Assembly: GCF_029239295.1 (NCBI RefSeq)
Contig: NZ_JAQZBC010000008.1
Span: 58,812-122,811 of the forward strand
DNA: 64,000 bases
DNA from: Sphingomonas sp.
GTDB lineage: Bacteria > Pseudomonadota > Alphaproteobacteria > Sphingomonadales > Sphingomonadaceae
Reading direction: 5' to 3'
In this document: positions 34,781-40,377 of the stretch, piece by piece
How positions within the stretch are numbered: the first letter of the stretch is position 1
How the letters are laid out: every line of letters begins with the position of its first letter
Translations under genes and position numbers: made by a program
The notes under the pieces: generated by a model
The model's input: the letters and a program-made list of their open reading frames with translations, nothing else
What the model was told of the DNA's origin: nothing
Databases searched by the model: none

Positions 34781-35167
34781 TCAGCCGATCATGCCGCCCT
34801 CGTTTGCGGCCAGCACCCGGCCCATGGCGTCGAACAGATTGTCCATCGCAACCGGTTTGAAGATGACATCGTCGGCGCCGGCGGCCAGGCACCGCTCGCG
34901 CAGGTCGACCGCCGTGTCCGCGGTGACCACGATGATGGGAACGCGCCCCTTCTGATCGGGACGCGCGCGAATGTGGCGAATGGCCGTGATGCCATCCATG
35001 CCTGGCATCCGCAGATCGACCAGCAGCATGTCAAAATCCTGCCCGTCGAGCAGGCGCAGCCCCTCTTCCGCGCTTTCCGCCTCGATCATATCGGCGCCGG
35101 CGACGTTGAGCATGTCGCGGACGACCCGACGATTCATCCTATCATCCTCGATGAAGAGGACGTTCAT
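34781..35167 (-). CDS. Single-domain response regulator
   Basis: IEDD acid pocket, LVDLRMPGMDG, VVTA, FKPV. Confidence 0.92.
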   Translation of the reverse strand: MNVLFIEDDRMNRRVVRDMLNVAGADMIEAESAEEGLRLLDGQDFDMLLVDLRMPGMDGITAIRHIRARPDQKGRVPIIVVTADTAVDLRERCLAAGADDVIFKPVAMDNLFDAMGRVLAANEGGMIG

Positions 35168-35221
35168 GGCCGTTTGCCACAAAGGCAGTCTGATTGTTCC
35201 ATTACCGATACTATTATCGTC

Positions 35222-37627
35222 TCAAGCTGCCTTGGAGACAAGTCCACTTGCGTGCGGTTCAGCTCCGAAAAGCACGTTAACCAAGTTATCTTTCGCAATC
35301 GGCTTGGTGATGAACTGGGCAACGCCTGATGCGGCAAATGCAGCTTGGTCTTCTGCCGGCAGCGACGGCCCAAGTAGCGCAATCCGCGCATGCGGCGCCA
35401 CCGCCACGATTTTCTGAATGCCTGCAATCACATCCTCACTGCCGCCGTGCAGCGTCGCGTGATCGATCAGCACCATCGCGGGCTGGCGTTCGGCCAGTAT
35501 CTGCTCTGCCTCGGATGCGCCGGCCGCAAAGATCACGGTGCCGCCGCGCGGCTCCAGCAGCGCCTTGAACATCGCGCGGGTGATCGGATTGCGGTCGATC
35601 ACGAGTACGCCGTCTCCCGTCGCACGAGTATCACCCGCCTCCACCAATTCCGCAGGATGGTACGGCAGTTCCAGCGTGAAGGTCGCGCCTTCGCCCTCGG
35701 CACTGGCAACGGTGACGTCGCCGCCCATGGCGCGCGACAGGTTTCGACAGATCGACAGGCCCAACCCCGTACCGCCGAACTGACGGGTCGTACCGGCGTC
35801 GGCCTGACGAAACGGTTCAAAGATGATCTCGTGCTTCTCGGGCGCGATACCGATCCCGGTATCGGCGACGATCAGGCGCCAGCGCTCGCCGACGATCTCG
35901 GCGCGCACGGTTACTGATCCTTCCGGTGTGAACTTCACGGCATTGGAGAGCAGGTTGAAGATGATCTGCCGCAGGCGCATGCCATCGACCAGCGCGCATT
36001 CCGGCCCGTTATCGATGGCAAGGGTGAACGCCAGTTTCTTCTCGCGCGCCGGCCCTTCCCATAATTGTCCGGCTTCCTTGAGGACCCGCTGAATATCGGT
36101 CGGCGCTTCCTCAAGCGTCATCTTACCGGTTTCGATCTTGGCGACATCGAGAATGTCGTCGACCAACGCCCGCATGGTGATGCCGGCGCCGTGCACGACC
36201 GACAGCCGTTCGCGTATCGCGCCATCCACCCGCTCGTCGGCCAGCATCACCTGCGTCATGCCAAGAATGCCGTTGAGCGGGGTGCGGATCTCGTGACTGG
36301 TCGTCGCTAGGAATTCGGTCTTGGCAGCCAGTGCCTTGCCCAGTGCGACGTTGGTGCGGGCGAGCGCATTGCGGCTGCGACGGATTGTGATCAGGCCAAA
36401 TGCCAGCAGGCTGATGATGAGCAGCGTGGTCACGCCGACTCCGATCGTGATCCACTGCTGCGCCTGCGCCCGCGCGCGTTCGAACGCGACTGTCTTCTGC
36501 AGGTCGGCGGCCTTTAGCTGCGCAATCCGCAGTTCCTGATTCGCGAAATCGAACCGCGCCCCCGCGATCGCTGCACTGTTGGAGCGCGCGGTTTCGGTCG
36601 CTTGATCATCAAGGCGCTTCAGGGCGGCGAGGTGCTGCAAGGCGAGGTAGTTGCGGCCAGCCTTCGCGTAGATCTTATACGCGACATCATGCGCCTGCCG
36701 ATCGGGCGACAGCGTTGCCGTAAGATCCTCACCCGCAAATCGCTGCGAGATGAGTTGCTCGGCACGCTGAAGGTCCCCACGACGAAAGGCCGAATCGGCG
36801 GCCAACGCGACGAAACTGGGATAATAGGCCGACGCGCCGGCCTGGCGGGTTAATGCCAACCCTTCGGCAATCACCTGATCGGCACCGGCGGCGTTTCCGC
36901 GATCGAGACGGACGTCGGCTACGTTCGTCAGGATCTGAGCGTAGACAACCTTGCTCTTCATCTCGCTGGCGTAGGAAAGTGCCTTTGCCAGCTCTGCTTC
37001 CGATTCGGGGAGGCGCTGGAGCTCCTTCAGGGCCAGTCCGCGTCCGTTGTGAATGGCAACAAGCAAACCCGGATCCGCGCGGTAGGCATCCAACGCCTGA
37101 TCGAAGTAGCGCAGCGCAGTCGTATGATCCTTGCCATTCGTATGCACGACCGCAAGCATGATCAGCGCTTTCGCCCGGCCCCGCGTATCGTCCAGGTCGC
37201 GAAACATATGATGCGCGCGGCGCAGATCCTCGAGCGCCCGACCCACTTGCCCGGTGGCGTAGAGGACGCCCCCTTCCGAAAGAAGGATATCGGCGTTCAG
37301 CTGTGATCCCGGCGCGGCGCGCTCGACGAGCTTTCGTGCGGTCGCAAGATCCTGGGCGGCGGGCTGATACTGGACGATACGGCTTCTCGCCTCGCCCATC
37401 AGCCAGCGAGCGGTCGCCTCCATCAGCGGCGACTTCATTTGCCGCGCATAGTTCAATGCTGCGGTTGCCTGATCCACCGCCGCCGCGGGATCGGTCAGCA
37501 TCTCTGCTTTGATGCCCGCGGCCATGACGTCAAATCGTGCATCTCGGCCGGGCGCCGTTGGAGCAGCGCCAGCCAGCAGCAACGGCGCCAAGGCAGCCAT
37601 GAAGTACCGGCGCGTTCTCCGCGCCAT
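35222..37627 (-). CDS. Hybrid sensor histidine kinase with extracytoplasmic TPR-like domain and C-terminal receiver
   Basis: Signal-like N-terminus, helical Ala-rich TPR-type repeats, TM, SHEIRTPLNG H-box, QIIFNLLSNAVKFT, DTGIG, GGTGLGLSI, REC tail. Confidence 0.88.
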   Translation of the reverse strand: MARRTRRYFMAALAPLLLAGAAPTAPGRDARFDVMAAGIKAEMLTDPAAAVDQATAALNYARQMKSPLMEATARWLMGEARSRIVQYQPAAQDLATARKLVERAAPGSQLNADILLSEGGVLYATGQVGRALEDLRRAHHMFRDLDDTRGRAKALIMLAVVHTNGKDHTTALRYFDQALDAYRADPGLLVAIHNGRGLALKELQRLPESEAELAKALSYASEMKSKVVYAQILTNVADVRLDRGNAAGADQVIAEGLALTRQAGASAYYPSFVALAADSAFRRGDLQRAEQLISQRFAGEDLTATLSPDRQAHDVAYKIYAKAGRNYLALQHLAALKRLDDQATETARSNSAAIAGARFDFANQELRIAQLKAADLQKTVAFERARAQAQQWITIGVGVTTLLIISLLAFGLITIRRSRNALARTNVALGKALAAKTEFLATTSHEIRTPLNGILGMTQVMLADERVDGAIRERLSVVHGAGITMRALVDDILDVAKIETGKMTLEEAPTDIQRVLKEAGQLWEGPAREKKLAFTLAIDNGPECALVDGMRLRQIIFNLLSNAVKFTPEGSVTVRAEIVGERWRLIVADTGIGIAPEKHEIIFEPFRQADAGTTRQFGGTGLGLSICRNLSRAMGGDVTVASAEGEGATFTLELPYHPAELVEAGDTRATGDGVLVIDRNPITRAMFKALLEPRGGTVIFAAGASEAEQILAERQPAMVLIDHATLHGGSEDVIAGIQKIVAVAPHARIALLGPSLPAEDQAAFAASGVAQFITKPIAKDNLVNVLFGAEPHASGLVSKAA

Positions 37628-38949
37628 CAGCCGCGCTTCCAGGCGGTCGCCAAACCGTTGAAGGACGCCCGTGTGTCACGCGACACGTGTTGGTGCTGAT
37701 CTTCCTCAAGGAAGGCCAGCAAGGCTGGCAGCGCGACCGGACGGCTGATGAGGAAGCCTTGCACCATGTCACAACCCATGACCGTCAGCAGTGCAAGGGC
37801 GGAATGTGTTTCCACTCCCTCTGCCACCACCTCCATCTCCAGTGCGTGAGCGAGGTCGATCGTCGAGCGGACGATCAGCGGATCGCGATTGGAGCTAGTC
37901 AGTTGGGTGACGAACAGCTTGTCGATCTTCAGCTCCCGCGCAGGCAGTTGCTTCAGATAGGCAAGGCTCGACAACCCGGCGCCGTAATCGTCGATCGCGA
38001 CGATGATCCCGATGTCGGCGAACCGCTGAAGGTTCGCAATCGCCGACTCAGGGTCGCGAATGACGGACGTTTCCGTGACTTCGAACCCGAGCTTCGCATC
38101 CGCCTCGATGACCAGGCGGCACGCCGCGTCGACAAAGTTCTGGTCGCCCAGAAGCTGTCCCGAAATGTTGATGAAGATCCGAAGATCGTGCCCTGCGGCC
38201 TGTAGGGTGCGCTGGTCATCAATCGCGCGGCGGATCGTCCATAGGGTCAGCAGGTCGATGACCTCGCCGTCTTCGGCAGCGCCGATGAAGTCCCCGGGCA
38301 GCACCAGCCCACGATCGGGATGGTTCCATCGAACCAGCGCCTCTGCGCTGCCGATTTCTTGCCGTCTGACGTGGATCTTCGGCTGATAGGCGAGAAAGAG
38401 CTGATCTTCCGTGATCGCGGCACGCAACTCATCCGACACGCGGCGGATATCCCGCGCTTCTGGGCCCGCGAGATCATGGCGCACGGGCGAATGAACCGAG
38501 CGCGCTTCCACCAGCGCAGCTTCGGCCTCTTCCACCAGCCTTACCTCGTCAGCCTGTGGCACGCGGCCAGCCGCCGCGCCAAAGACAAGCTCGATCTCGT
38601 GCAATTCGCCGTCCAGGTCGAACATCGGCTCGCATAGGTCCCGCAGCCGGTCGAGCGTCTCATCGAGATCGCCTGCGCGGTCCCCTTCAAACGCGATTTC
38701 GATGGTCGTTCTGCTGGTCGCTGCCAGCCGCAACGTCGGCAGCGCCGAGCCAATGCGTGACTGGACATCGGCGACCAGTAATTCGGCACGCGCGCAGCCC
38801 AGATGCCGCCGGATCTTCGCGAAGTTAGCGATCTCCCCAAGCACGAGGAATTGCCACGTGGGACGCTGCGCCGCGAGCGCGGACAGAGTCGCAAGTGCCT
38901 GCTCTCGCGATGCGGGAACGTCGACAGATTGTGAGCCGGGGCCAGCCAT
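37627..38949 (-). CDS. EAL-domain c-di-GMP phosphodiesterase with degenerate GGDEF-like N-terminus
   Basis: YQPKI, EALVRW, INIS, EVTET, DDYGAG, LKIDK, EGVET, QGF; no GGDEF motif; TGATG overlap with the kinase gene. Confidence 0.88.
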   Translation of the reverse strand: MAGPGSQSVDVPASREQALATLSALAAQRPTWQFLVLGEIANFAKIRRHLGCARAELLVADVQSRIGSALPTLRLAATSRTTIEIAFEGDRAGDLDETLDRLRDLCEPMFDLDGELHEIELVFGAAAGRVPQADEVRLVEEAEAALVEARSVHSPVRHDLAGPEARDIRRVSDELRAAITEDQLFLAYQPKIHVRRQEIGSAEALVRWNHPDRGLVLPGDFIGAAEDGEVIDLLTLWTIRRAIDDQRTLQAAGHDLRIFINISGQLLGDQNFVDAACRLVIEADAKLGFEVTETSVIRDPESAIANLQRFADIGIIVAIDDYGAGLSSLAYLKQLPARELKIDKLFVTQLTSSNRDPLIVRSTIDLAHALEMEVVAEGVETHSALALLTVMGCDMVQGFLISRPVALPALLAFLEEDQHQHVSRDTRASFNGLATAWKRG

Positions 38950-39044
38950 ACCGTGCTGGAGCTACCGCCCGATGCCTAAACATACCTTTAATCACCGTCC
39001 AAAGTCGGAACGATAAGCATCGAGCAGCTAAATACCCTTGTGAT

Positions 39045-39063
39045 ATGGTAAACAAATCGTTAA
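39045..39063. promoter_or_regulatory. Candidate CtrA binding site
   Basis: Minus strand TTAA-N7-TTTACCAT, one mismatch to TTAA-N7-TTAAC, in an AT-rich divergent promoter region. Confidence 0.45.
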
Positions 39064-39109
39064 ATCATAGCACGCACCTTCTGGGGTGCTAAAAACTAGG
39101 GAGTTCGAC

Positions 39110-39163
39110 ATGATCGCTTTCATTATCGCGCTGATTTACGGCACCGACGTTAAGCCCTGGTAA
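39110..39163 (+). CDS. 17-aa micro-ORF MIAFIIALIYGTDVKPW
   Basis: AGGGAG RBS with 6-nt spacing; hydrophobic N-half; terminator hairpin overlaps the stop codon. Confidence 0.55.
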   Translation: MIAFIIALIYGTDVKPW

Positions 39164-39174
39164 GGGCTTTGTTT
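39152..39174 (+). terminator. Terminator-like hairpin overlapping the micro-ORF stop
   Basis: AAGCCCT-GGTA-AGGGCTT followed by TGTTT. Confidence 0.5.
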
Positions 39175-39224
39175 GGCTATTTTGCTCGGCAGAACTGCGG
39201 CTAGGCAGTAATCTTCCGCTCAAT

Positions 39225-39323
39225 CGCCAAACTGGTTCGCTACAATGAACCAATTTATGTTAGATCTAGCCGTCCAGGCTAGTGAAGCGGGAAGCCCTCA
39301 TCGCCAGCGATGGGGGCTTTTTT
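39225..39323 (+). ncRNA. Candidate small regulatory RNA (about 100 nt; 5' end uncertain)
   Basis: Hairpins TGGTTC/GAACCA and CTAGCC/GGCTAG, an AU-rich linker, and a strong terminator (AAGCCCTCATCG/CGATGGGGGCTT + T-run) with no upstream CDS to terminate. Confidence 0.45.
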
Positions 39324-39492
39324 GCAGCTGATTCAGAACCCGGCTCGGGAAATGGCGCTCGCCTTTTCTAACCTGCACAGATTCGAGCGTGCCAGACACG
39401 ACATAGCGCGGCCGCTACGCAGACGTTCGGCAAGGGCTGAGGGGACGCAAGCTTCGCGTACAGTCAGCCGTGAGCTTCGGGCGATGTGACGC

Positions 39493-40377
39493 TCACCCGC
39501 GTGGGTGGGCGTTTCGATATACGTCTAGGAGATGGGCCGCATCGACGGCGGTGTAGATTTGCGTCGAACTGAGGCTCGCGTGGCCAAGAAGCTCCTGCAG
39601 CGCGCGCAGGTCGGCCCCTCTGCCAAGCAGATGCGTGGCAAAGGAGTGGCGCAGCGCGTGCGGAGTCGTTCGGCTTGGCAGGTTCAACGCGCCGCGGGCG
39701 GCCCTTACCTTGGCGCGCACTACGCCCGGGGACAGCGGACCGCCCCTCACCCCGCGGAAAAGCGCGACGTCCGGCTCAGGCGACCACGGCGCCGCCGCCA
39801 CATAAGCCTCCAGTGCGCTTCGTACCGGCGGGATCAAGGGCACGACACGCTGTTTGTCGCGCTTGCCCGTCACAAGAAGAGTTTCGCCGAGCGGTAAAGC
39901 GGCGCCGGTAAGCGTCAGGGCCTCTCCGATTCGGAGGCCGGCACCGTAAAGCAGGAGCAGCAAGGCCCAGTCCCGTTGACCGACCCACGGCTCCCTGGCT
40001 TCTTGTGCCACTTCTTCCGCCAACGCGACTGCTTCGTGGGGCGCGATGGCTCGCGGAACGCCCTTGCGAACCCGTGGCCCCTTCAGCCGAGGCGCACTGC
40101 CTTCGCCACCCGCCCACTCCAGAAACGCGCGTGCCGCAGACAATTCCCGCGCCGCTGAGGCATTCGACAGGCCGTCGCCGCGGCGCCGTGCCAGAAATGC
40201 GCGCAGATCTGCGGCAGTTATCTCCCTCAACTCGGATCGGCCCACTGCGCCGCCGAGATGATGCTGGAGAAAATTCACCAGCCGCTGTGCTGTCGCACGA
40301 TAGGCTCTGACCGTGTGGATCGACCGACGCCGATCGCGGATCAGGTGTTCGGCATAGCGGGCGGGCAAGTCTTCCAC
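39493..40377 (-). CDS. xerC: Tyrosine recombinase XerC
   Basis: [44 protein letters not shown]; adjacent to priA. Confidence 0.88.

Follow-up and report, generated by a model that had tools for sequence, protein, structure and literature searches.

The question raised by this locus is what purpose is served by a gene of 17 codons that stands head-to-head with an operon for a signalling module. The gene lies in a stretch of 64,000 nucleotides from Sphingomonas sp. (NCBI RefSeq assembly GCF_029239295.1, contig NZ_JAQZBC010000008.1, positions 58,812 to 122,811), referred to as a whole as the window. It faces three genes, encoding an EAL phosphodiesterase for cyclic di-GMP (c-di-GMP), a hybrid sensor kinase with a tetratricopeptide repeat (TPR) sensor, and a stand-alone receiver. 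This micro-open reading frame (micro-ORF) is shown here to be a stand-alone, strongly expressed small gene on a structured RNA, strictly coupled to the operon. The best explanation of its function, held tentatively and at a little under an even chance, is that its peptide acts in trans on the module as a partner, with the TPR sensor as the probable contact.

The micro-ORF encodes MIAFIIALIYGTDVKPW in 17 codons followed by TAA, running from the ATG at 39110 to the TAA that ends at 39163 on the forward strand, and is unique within the 64-kb window. A preliminary description of this stretch had reported the ORF with an AGGGAG ribosome-binding site, a hairpin of its own, an AT-rich promoter region and a divergent operon in which an EAL gene overlaps a gene for a TPR kinase, followed by a receiver gene. 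All of these features were recovered. The binding site and the hairpin, which lies over the last codons and the stop, are placed in Table 1; the intergenic region has a G+C content of 48% compared with 66% window-wide; the operon is confirmed by Pfam matches and coordinates, with the TGA of the EAL gene overlapping the ATG of the kinase gene by one base. The same description had made its proposal depend on conservation of the ORF, its ribosome-binding site and its coding character in relatives. On these points it is upheld throughout the Sphingomonas group, always opposite the EAL/TPR-kinase/receiver operon.

This conservation was approached from both sides of the locus. The search from the operon side collected relatives of the EAL gene, one genome per species, and yielded 80 loci, all from the Sphingomonas group, of which 79 are informative and one ends at a contig edge. 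An intact homologue of 17-21 amino acids, with GGGAG 6-8 nt upstream, was found in 79 of the 79 informative genome loci, on the opposite strand and 200-450 bp upstream of the EAL gene. The EAL, kinase and receiver trio is present in every locus, with the receiver after the kinase where the locus extends far enough. The search from the ORF side used a DNA pattern consisting of the micro-ORF and its Shine–Dalgarno sequence only. When run on metagenomes, it returned 76 stretches, all 76 of them carrying true homologues. The EAL gene is the divergent neighbour in 68 of these 76, along with the kinase and receiver genes where the contig reaches; seven are too short on the EAL side and one is a probable chimera. 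This last locus (L133; related loci are cited by number) is the sole micro-ORF locus without an EAL neighbour, and is a 2151-nt contig in which a truncated groEL/groES of different composition abuts the ORF, so that it is probably an artefact of assembly.

The genes on the far side of the micro-ORF vary between loci (XerC/PriA, FAD monooxygenase, alanine dehydrogenase, ugd, cysD and efflux genes) and are usually convergent. In the window, the right flank holds a convergent XerC/D-type recombinase gene and priA. It is because this far-side flank is not conserved that the micro-ORF can be linked to the operon, and the co-occurrence of the two is far beyond chance. Linkage to the XerC/PriA side was ruled out, as that flank is kept only in the eight closest loci, L001-L008. 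A role for the micro-ORF as the leader of a downstream gene was ruled out as well, since the downstream genes vary and are mostly convergent.

The pattern of substitution, as read from the sequences, fits a coding sequence under peptide-level selection. Start, stop and frame are maintained in 155 loci, the start codon is ATG or GTG in all of them, and GGGAG or GGAG is located 6-8 nt 5′ of the start in 141 of 146 unique loci. Entropies at the three codon positions are 1.06, 0.46 and 1.14, so that the second positions are the most constrained, and hydrophobic residues are exchanged for one another at peptide positions 2, 4-6, 8, 9 and 14. The overall consensus is M-L-x-F-I-L-A-L-I-Y-G-x-x-I-[KR]-P-[WF]-stop. 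Three classes are seen: the majority class 1 (M-L-x-F-I-L-A-L-I-Y-G-x-x-I-[KR]-P-W), class 2 (M-S-V-V-F-A-L-V-L-A-A-I-S-V-N-I-K-P-W) and class 3 (M-F-A-F-N-L-L-F-R-D-G-x-x-G-x-D-I-R-P-[FYVL]). The motif [KR]-P-[WFY] directly precedes the stop in 153 of 155 loci, with P16 invariant; the endings are RPW in 96, KPW in 41, RPF in 12 and others in 6. Insertions and deletions in the related loci are confined to the middle of the peptide and never affect its C-terminus, and the N-terminal residues are conserved to the same degree as the C-terminal ones. In distant species, the micro-ORF is the sole alignable island of the intergenic DNA. No family for it was found in Pfam or NCBIfam (the latter searched with extended or 20-residue forms). 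An antisense ORF was also considered and rejected: the antisense strand does offer an open in-register frame in 72 of 74 loci, which is attributable to the NTN codons and the rarity of TTA/CTA codons, and this frame has no conserved start, Shine–Dalgarno sequence or end.

The micro-ORF is carried on a discrete transcript of about 250 nt, spanning roughly 39071-39324. Three RNA-type runs gave isolated contigs over the micro-ORF (39090-39292, 39114-39289 and 39118-39334), with nothing from the EAL gene or xerC, and in one run the micro-ORF contig is the sole real piece of the window over 20 kb. In a bona fide RNA-seq run, the micro-ORF reaches a depth of 16.4, second within 20 kb only to a Tim44-like gene (22), and the EAL gene and most of the kinase gene have zero coverage. 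Expression is also seen in another species, where four soil and rhizosphere metatranscriptomes match the 6-kb locus L019 essentially at the micro-ORF only. One soil metatranscriptome contig (L019:3523-3659) is a 137-nt insert with Illumina adapter at both ends. Its extent, with the foot of the 5′ hairpin at one end and a point 47 nt beyond the stop codon at the other, hints at a native short RNA or at a product of processing. The upstream end of the insert lies 36 nt upstream of the start codon and 5-6 nt after the conserved TAATAA, which is where initiation is expected.

Initiation in the window is predicted at approximately 39071-39073, downstream of a promoter that is overlapped by a CtrA-type box. 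CtrA of S. melonis is said, in work by Francez-Charlot et al. in 2015, to control flagellar, exopolysaccharide and c-di-GMP genes. The full CtrA site is defined as TTAA-N7-TTAA (as cited in PMC8921679). Box 1 holds a fixed position, -61 to -47 relative to the ATG; in 95 of 145 unique loci it matches this site exactly, and in 132 of the 145 it has at most one mismatch. Box 2, again with at most one mismatch, follows about 72 nt from box 1 toward the EAL gene in approximately 129 of 145 unique loci. Exact TTAA-N7-TTAA sites number zero in 983 kb of locus background, and the two boxes are the only sites with one mismatch or fewer in the window. In Sphingomonas sp. WG, a phosphodiesterase gene for which a CtrA site is predicted increases in expression along with ctrA (PMC8921679). 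WelA of the same strain (PMC8921679) was ruled out as the present kinase, as it is a PAS-type kinase, and an EcfG-type promoter (GGAAC ... CGTT) was ruled out by its wrong spacing of 46 nt. The ATG of the EAL gene has no obvious Shine–Dalgarno sequence; as box 2 lies 28-42 nt before this ATG, the EAL mRNA may be leaderless or short-leadered.

The kinase is laid out as a signal peptide, a periplasmic sensor of eight TPRs, one membrane helix, HisKA, HATPase and a weak receiver. Since a signal peptide precedes it and a single membrane helix follows later, the TPR region of about 370 residues is predicted to be periplasmic. The TPR-type sensor with a signal-like N-terminus that the preliminary description had proposed thus takes the form, by prediction, of a periplasmic TPR superhelix. 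An AlphaFold2 model of kinase residues 28-395 (pLDDT, the predicted local distance difference test, of 92) has 16 helices forming eight TPR pairs, then a long helix toward the membrane. With Foldseek, the nearest solved structures to this model are the LGN/Pins TPR domains with extended peptides (template modelling (TM) score 0.68), with designed TPRs next, along with Rap and NprR, which are pheromone receptors (TM 0.54-0.65). The grooves of such TPR domains accommodate peptides in extended form as well as C-terminal ends. The modelled fold fits peptide binding, and the sensor family is limited to Sphingomonas and close genera. Signal peptides of the Sec type are found in all kinase orthologues; that of the window kinase (37540-37627, reverse strand) begins MARRTRRYFMAAL and is twin-arginine (Tat)-like, whereas those of the orthologues are Sec-like.

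From these results a mechanism can be proposed. The promoter, with its overlapping CtrA-type box, drives the stable, highly structured transcript of about 250 nt, and this RNA would be translated at a high rate into the 17-residue peptide. The peptide, with a hydrophobic N-terminal half and an invariant C-terminal [ILV]-[KR]-P-[WFY] bearing a free carboxylate, would act in trans on the signalling module with which it is co-inherited. It is taken to be the actor because selection covers its whole sequence, and a physical partnership with an operon product is the simplest reading because the two are always co-inherited and no downstream gene is conserved. The likeliest partner would be the periplasmic eight-repeat sensor of the kinase, contacted by the C-terminal end of the peptide, as no other product of the operon has a peptide-binding fold. 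Binding could then tune the phosphorelay of kinase and receiver, and the effect would pass on to the EAL phosphodiesterase and to c-di-GMP. The two boxes, one over the -10 element of the peptide promoter and the other where the -35 element of an operon promoter would sit, suggest that peptide and operon may be wired into the CtrA (motility/lifestyle) regulon, possibly reciprocally. The features on which this proposal draws are collected in Table 1.

Table 1. Features of the micro-ORF, its transcript and the divergent operon (positions within the window)
Feature	Position	Strand	Evidence and remarks
Stand-alone receiver, third operon gene	34781..35182	-	Pfam Response_reg, 1e-27
Hybrid sensor kinase, second operon gene	35222..37627	-	Pfam TPR_12, HisKA, HATPase_c, weak Response_reg
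EAL c-di-GMP phosphodiesterase, first operon gene	37627..38949	-	Pfam EAL, 1e-63
CtrA-type box 2, TAAACATACCTTTAA	38977..38991	.	one mismatch to TTAA-N7-TTAA; 28-42 nt upstream of EAL ATG
-35-like TTGTGA, micro-ORF promoter	39038..39043	+	TTG conserved in relatives; 16 nt from TTAAAT
CtrA-type box 1, TAAACAAATCGTTAA	39049..39063	.	one mismatch; overlaps promoter spacer and -10
-10-like TTAAAT	39060..39065	+	TAATAA in most relatives, conserved just 5′ of the hairpin
5′ hairpin, GCACCU uucug GGGUGC	39074..39089	+	predicted fold; arms covary, e.g., GC 32 / AU 30 at one pair
Shine–Dalgarno sequence, AGGGAG	39098..39103	+	6 nt ahead of ATG 39110
Micro-ORF	39110..39163	+	intact in 155/155 informative loci; 119 distinct peptides
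Small stop hairpin, AAGCCCU ggua AGGGCUU	39152..39169	+	predicted fold; spans K-P-W codons and stop; kept only in the clade of the window, L001-L007
Long stem-loop, GUUUGGC ... GCCAAAC, with inner hairpin	39171..39232	+	predicted fold; begins 8 nt past the stop
Two further hairpins	39233-39252, 39266-39282	+	predicted fold; specific to this species group
Intrinsic terminator, 14-bp stem and T run	39290..39324	+	ends the micro-ORF transcript; RNA-run contigs stop at 39289-39334

The EAL protein shows the motifs EALxR, DDYG, EVTE and EGVE. Its N-terminal region is less typical: residues 1-170 (38440-38949, reverse strand) have no Pfam match, yet can be aligned with the GGDEF-EAL portions of the NCBIfam models DibA, GepA and LapD from residue 24-38 onward. 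From these alignments, the N-terminal 170 residues are probably a degenerate GGDEF domain.

There are a number of observations that weigh against a peptide partner of the kinase, concerning the peptide and its supposed receptor on the one hand and the RNA on the other. The peptide of 17-21 amino acids is too short for a signal peptide and has none, and no exporter, peptidase or importer genes are linked to it across the flanks of the related loci. Its hydrophobic run extends over 8-12 residues (about 8 in the class ending in RPF) before acidic and basic residues follow, and stable membrane insertion is not a conserved property of the peptide. The structural likeness of the sensor is generic for TPRs. 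Mutual information between the peptide positions and the columns of the EAL, kinase and receiver alignments is dominated by phylogeny and does not single out the sensor. Furthermore, the RNA contigs are unstranded, and the strand of the transcript was deduced from the promoter, the Shine–Dalgarno sequence and the T-run terminator.

The lack of strand information has a bearing on a further explanation, namely that the peptide is a type I toxin of the Ibs/Ldr class held in check by an antisense RNA, in which case the abundant RNA could be the antitoxin strand. A peptide of 17-21 amino acids that is hydrophobic in its N-terminal half and is encoded on a structured, 5′-hairpin-bearing mRNA would suit such a toxin. 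The C-terminal half is polar and conserved, however, and the RPF class is largely hydrophilic. Moreover, type I toxin-antitoxin systems are patchy in distribution and often multi-copy, whereas this gene is a single copy in the window and keeps strict synteny with one operon in 155 loci. The promoter, Shine–Dalgarno sequence and T-run terminator all lie on the ORF strand and no conserved antisense promoter was noticed. Given the strict single-copy synteny, a toxin is considered highly improbable.

The remaining points concern the RNA. The fold of 39070-39322 has an energy of -98 kcal/mol (z = -4.2) and consists, in order, of the 5′ hairpin, the strong Shine–Dalgarno sequence, a mostly open ORF, the stop hairpin, the long stem, two hairpins and the terminator. 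The long stem is homologous in 70 diverse sequences, in which it begins 8-12 nt past the stop and covaries, with compensatory changes in all eight core pairs. Pairing is retained in 92.9% of alignment cells compared with 79.5% in shuffles, and double-change cells number 100 versus 29; none of 500 shuffles reaches the observed value, and the slid controls are all far lower. This 3′ domain is conserved in structure and not in sequence. A search of Rfam found no family in 38800-39600 (the best hit reached 17 bits, with E = 1.3, where the gathering score is 70), and a scan for tRNA and tmRNA found nothing in the intergenic region.

Such an RNA could itself be the effector, by base pairing or protein binding, with the ORF accessory to it or stabilizing it through translation, in the manner of the dual-function RNAs RNAIII/hld and SgrS/SgrT. 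The very stable fold, the two covarying helices and the abundance of a discrete transcript speak for this reading. The arrangement also recalls the P2/P3 promoters of agr in Staphylococcus, where RNAIII/hld is divergent from agrBDCA: in both, a shared regulatory region separates a two-component operon from a structured, abundant RNA with a very small ORF. A perfect palindrome, TCCCGANTCGGGA (TCCCGA-N-TCGGGA), occurs once per locus in 28 loci (L013, L015, L016, L018, L019, L023, L025 and 21 others), always in the 3′ part of the RNA gene, approximately 130-170 nt 3′ of the micro-ORF stop; the window has no copy of it. The palindrome may form an RNA hairpin of conserved sequence or serve as the binding site of a protein. 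RNAIII, however, is 514 nt in length with known base-pairing targets, its hld product is a 26-residue cytolysin, and its region has AgrA sites where this one has CtrA-type boxes, with no sequence relationship between the two. A conserved base-pairing region of the kind expected of dual-function RNAs was not found with the EAL leader, which was the only target examined. Pairing with this leader was ruled out, as cognate combinations do not differ from the non-cognate controls (p = 0.68 and 0.90). The 3′ domain retains no candidate seed and no Rfam family matches it, while the ORF is the sole sequence-conserved part in distant species, and peptide-level conservation across 119 variants is hard to square with an accessory ORF. 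An RNA that acts first and foremost by itself is judged unlikely.

The end of the ORF is constrained beyond what amino-acid selection would account for. In the loci ending in PW, the proline codon is CCC in 52 and CCT in 8 of 60 unique loci and never CCG or CCA, with CCG being the commonest proline codon of the neighbouring genes. The stop is TAA in 58 of these 60, compared with 4 of 20 long ORFs of the window, and arginine is encoded by CGC or CGT and lysine by AAG (39155-39163 in the window and the homologous codons of L001-L080). In the RPF class, the proline codon is CCG and the stop TAA or TGA. These constraints point to a role at the level of the RNA or of translation. The preliminary description had mentioned neither the structured RNA of about 250 nt nor the CtrA-type boxes nor the synonymous-site constraint, and it is on account of these three features that RNA-level or cis-acting readings stay alive.

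In the cis-acting version, the whole 17-residue chain would still be inside the exit tunnel when the ribosome reaches [KR]-P-W-UAA, and termination would be slowed there, perhaps by a small molecule. The ribosome paused at the base of the conserved stem would then set the stability, processing or 3′ extension of the RNA. In size and in the C-terminal Pro-aromatic pair before the stop, the peptide recalls arrest peptides that act at the termination stage, such as TnaC; these and the short antibiotic-sensing leaders likewise combine a short ORF, a conserved proline near the stop and an RNA structure that follows shortly after it. Such a pause would be in keeping with the restricted choice of synonymous codons at the end of the ORF, the covarying stem 8-12 nt past the stop coincides with the leading edge of a terminating ribosome, and the hairpin of the window takes in the stop codon itself. 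Arrest peptides, however, lead a co-directional regulated gene. Here the gene that comes next varies between species and is most often convergent; where it runs in the same direction, strong terminators lie in between, so that no regulated downstream gene is found. The N-terminal residues equal the C-terminal ones in conservation, the 3′ domain keeps its structure and not its sequence, and the constant co-inheritance with the EAL/kinase operon would be left unexplained. A nascent-peptide sensor of this type is judged unlikely, though it keeps a real share of the probability.

Around the stop codon, the arrangement differs between clades. In many class 1 loci (e.g., L013-L015, L023, L024, L033 and L045), the sequence AUACC usually trails the 3′ strand of the long stem, and its pairing with the GGUA of UGG-UAA could make the stop codon part of a longer helix. 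The clade of the window has its own hairpin over the stop in place of this arrangement.

For the favoured trans-acting peptide, the closest parallels are the RRNPP systems of Firmicutes (SHP/Rgg, ComS/ComR, Phr/Rap and NprX/NprR), in which a tiny ORF likewise adjoins, and is often divergent from, the gene for a TPR-type receptor. Rap and NprR are themselves among the structural matches of the sensor model. ComS of S. mutans, too, has 17 residues; its N-terminal half is hydrophobic, and its active part, at the C-terminus, contains Trp. The receptors of RRNPP systems, however, are cytoplasmic and have a helix-turn-helix or phosphatase output, whereas the putative one here, belonging to a hybrid kinase, is a TPR sensor predicted to be periplasmic. 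RRNPP peptides leave the cell, are processed and are taken up again, whereas no export or import genes are linked here, and their hosts are Firmicutes rather than an alphaproteobacterium.

A second comparison is with small proteins proposed to tune sensor kinases by direct contact, namely MgrB and SafA with PhoQ, MzrA with EnvZ, and DUF1127 proteins with PhoR. Small-protein tuning of a kinase does occur in alphaproteobacteria, as the DUF1127-PhoR pair is found in Agrobacterium (PMC12501420). These modulators are 30-70 residues in length and most have a full membrane helix or a folded domain, whereas the present peptide has 17 residues and no full-length helix; its hydrophobic run falls short of the membrane helix of about 20 residues typical of MgrB. 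Their genes are also not tied to the kinase operon, in contrast to the strict synteny observed here.

The element lacks at least one defining feature of each system compared and is a member of none. What is coupled to the two-component module here is best described as either a small peptide or a dual-function RNA, for which neither a matching family model nor a paper was found. The view of the preliminary description that no system of this kind had been described agrees with the literature searched, which yields no description of the element. Its abundant, highly folded RNA and its constant place beside one operon make the micro-ORF a strong candidate for encoding a new peptide that partners a sensor kinase. 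A bolder form of the proposal is that the leaderless 17-mer, produced in quantity, reaches the periplasm of the producing cell or of its neighbours through an unlinked exporter or from lysed kin, and that its invariant [KR]-P-[WF]-COO- end is read by the periplasmic TPR domain of the kinase to adjust c-di-GMP and the choice between motile and sessile life under CtrA. This form is speculative and rather unlikely; if true, it would represent a Gram-negative counterpart of the Gram-positive peptide/TPR pheromone systems, with the receptor outside the membrane.

Genes as short as this are invisible to standard annotation. Nonetheless, across a large genus of ecological importance, few elements of the neighbourhood match this micro-ORF in conservation or expression. 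The element is small, single-copy and easily mutated, so that the question of its function is directly testable. If the RNA or the nascent chain is active instead of the peptide, the locus would define a new family of structured regulatory RNAs with ties to the CtrA network. If the peptide is the partner of the TPR kinase, an orphan class of periplasmic TPR sensors would gain in it a defined ligand or modulator, the control of c-di-GMP and motility in Sphingomonas would become more accessible, and peptide and kinase would possibly be the first peptide/kinase signalling pair in alphaproteobacteria.

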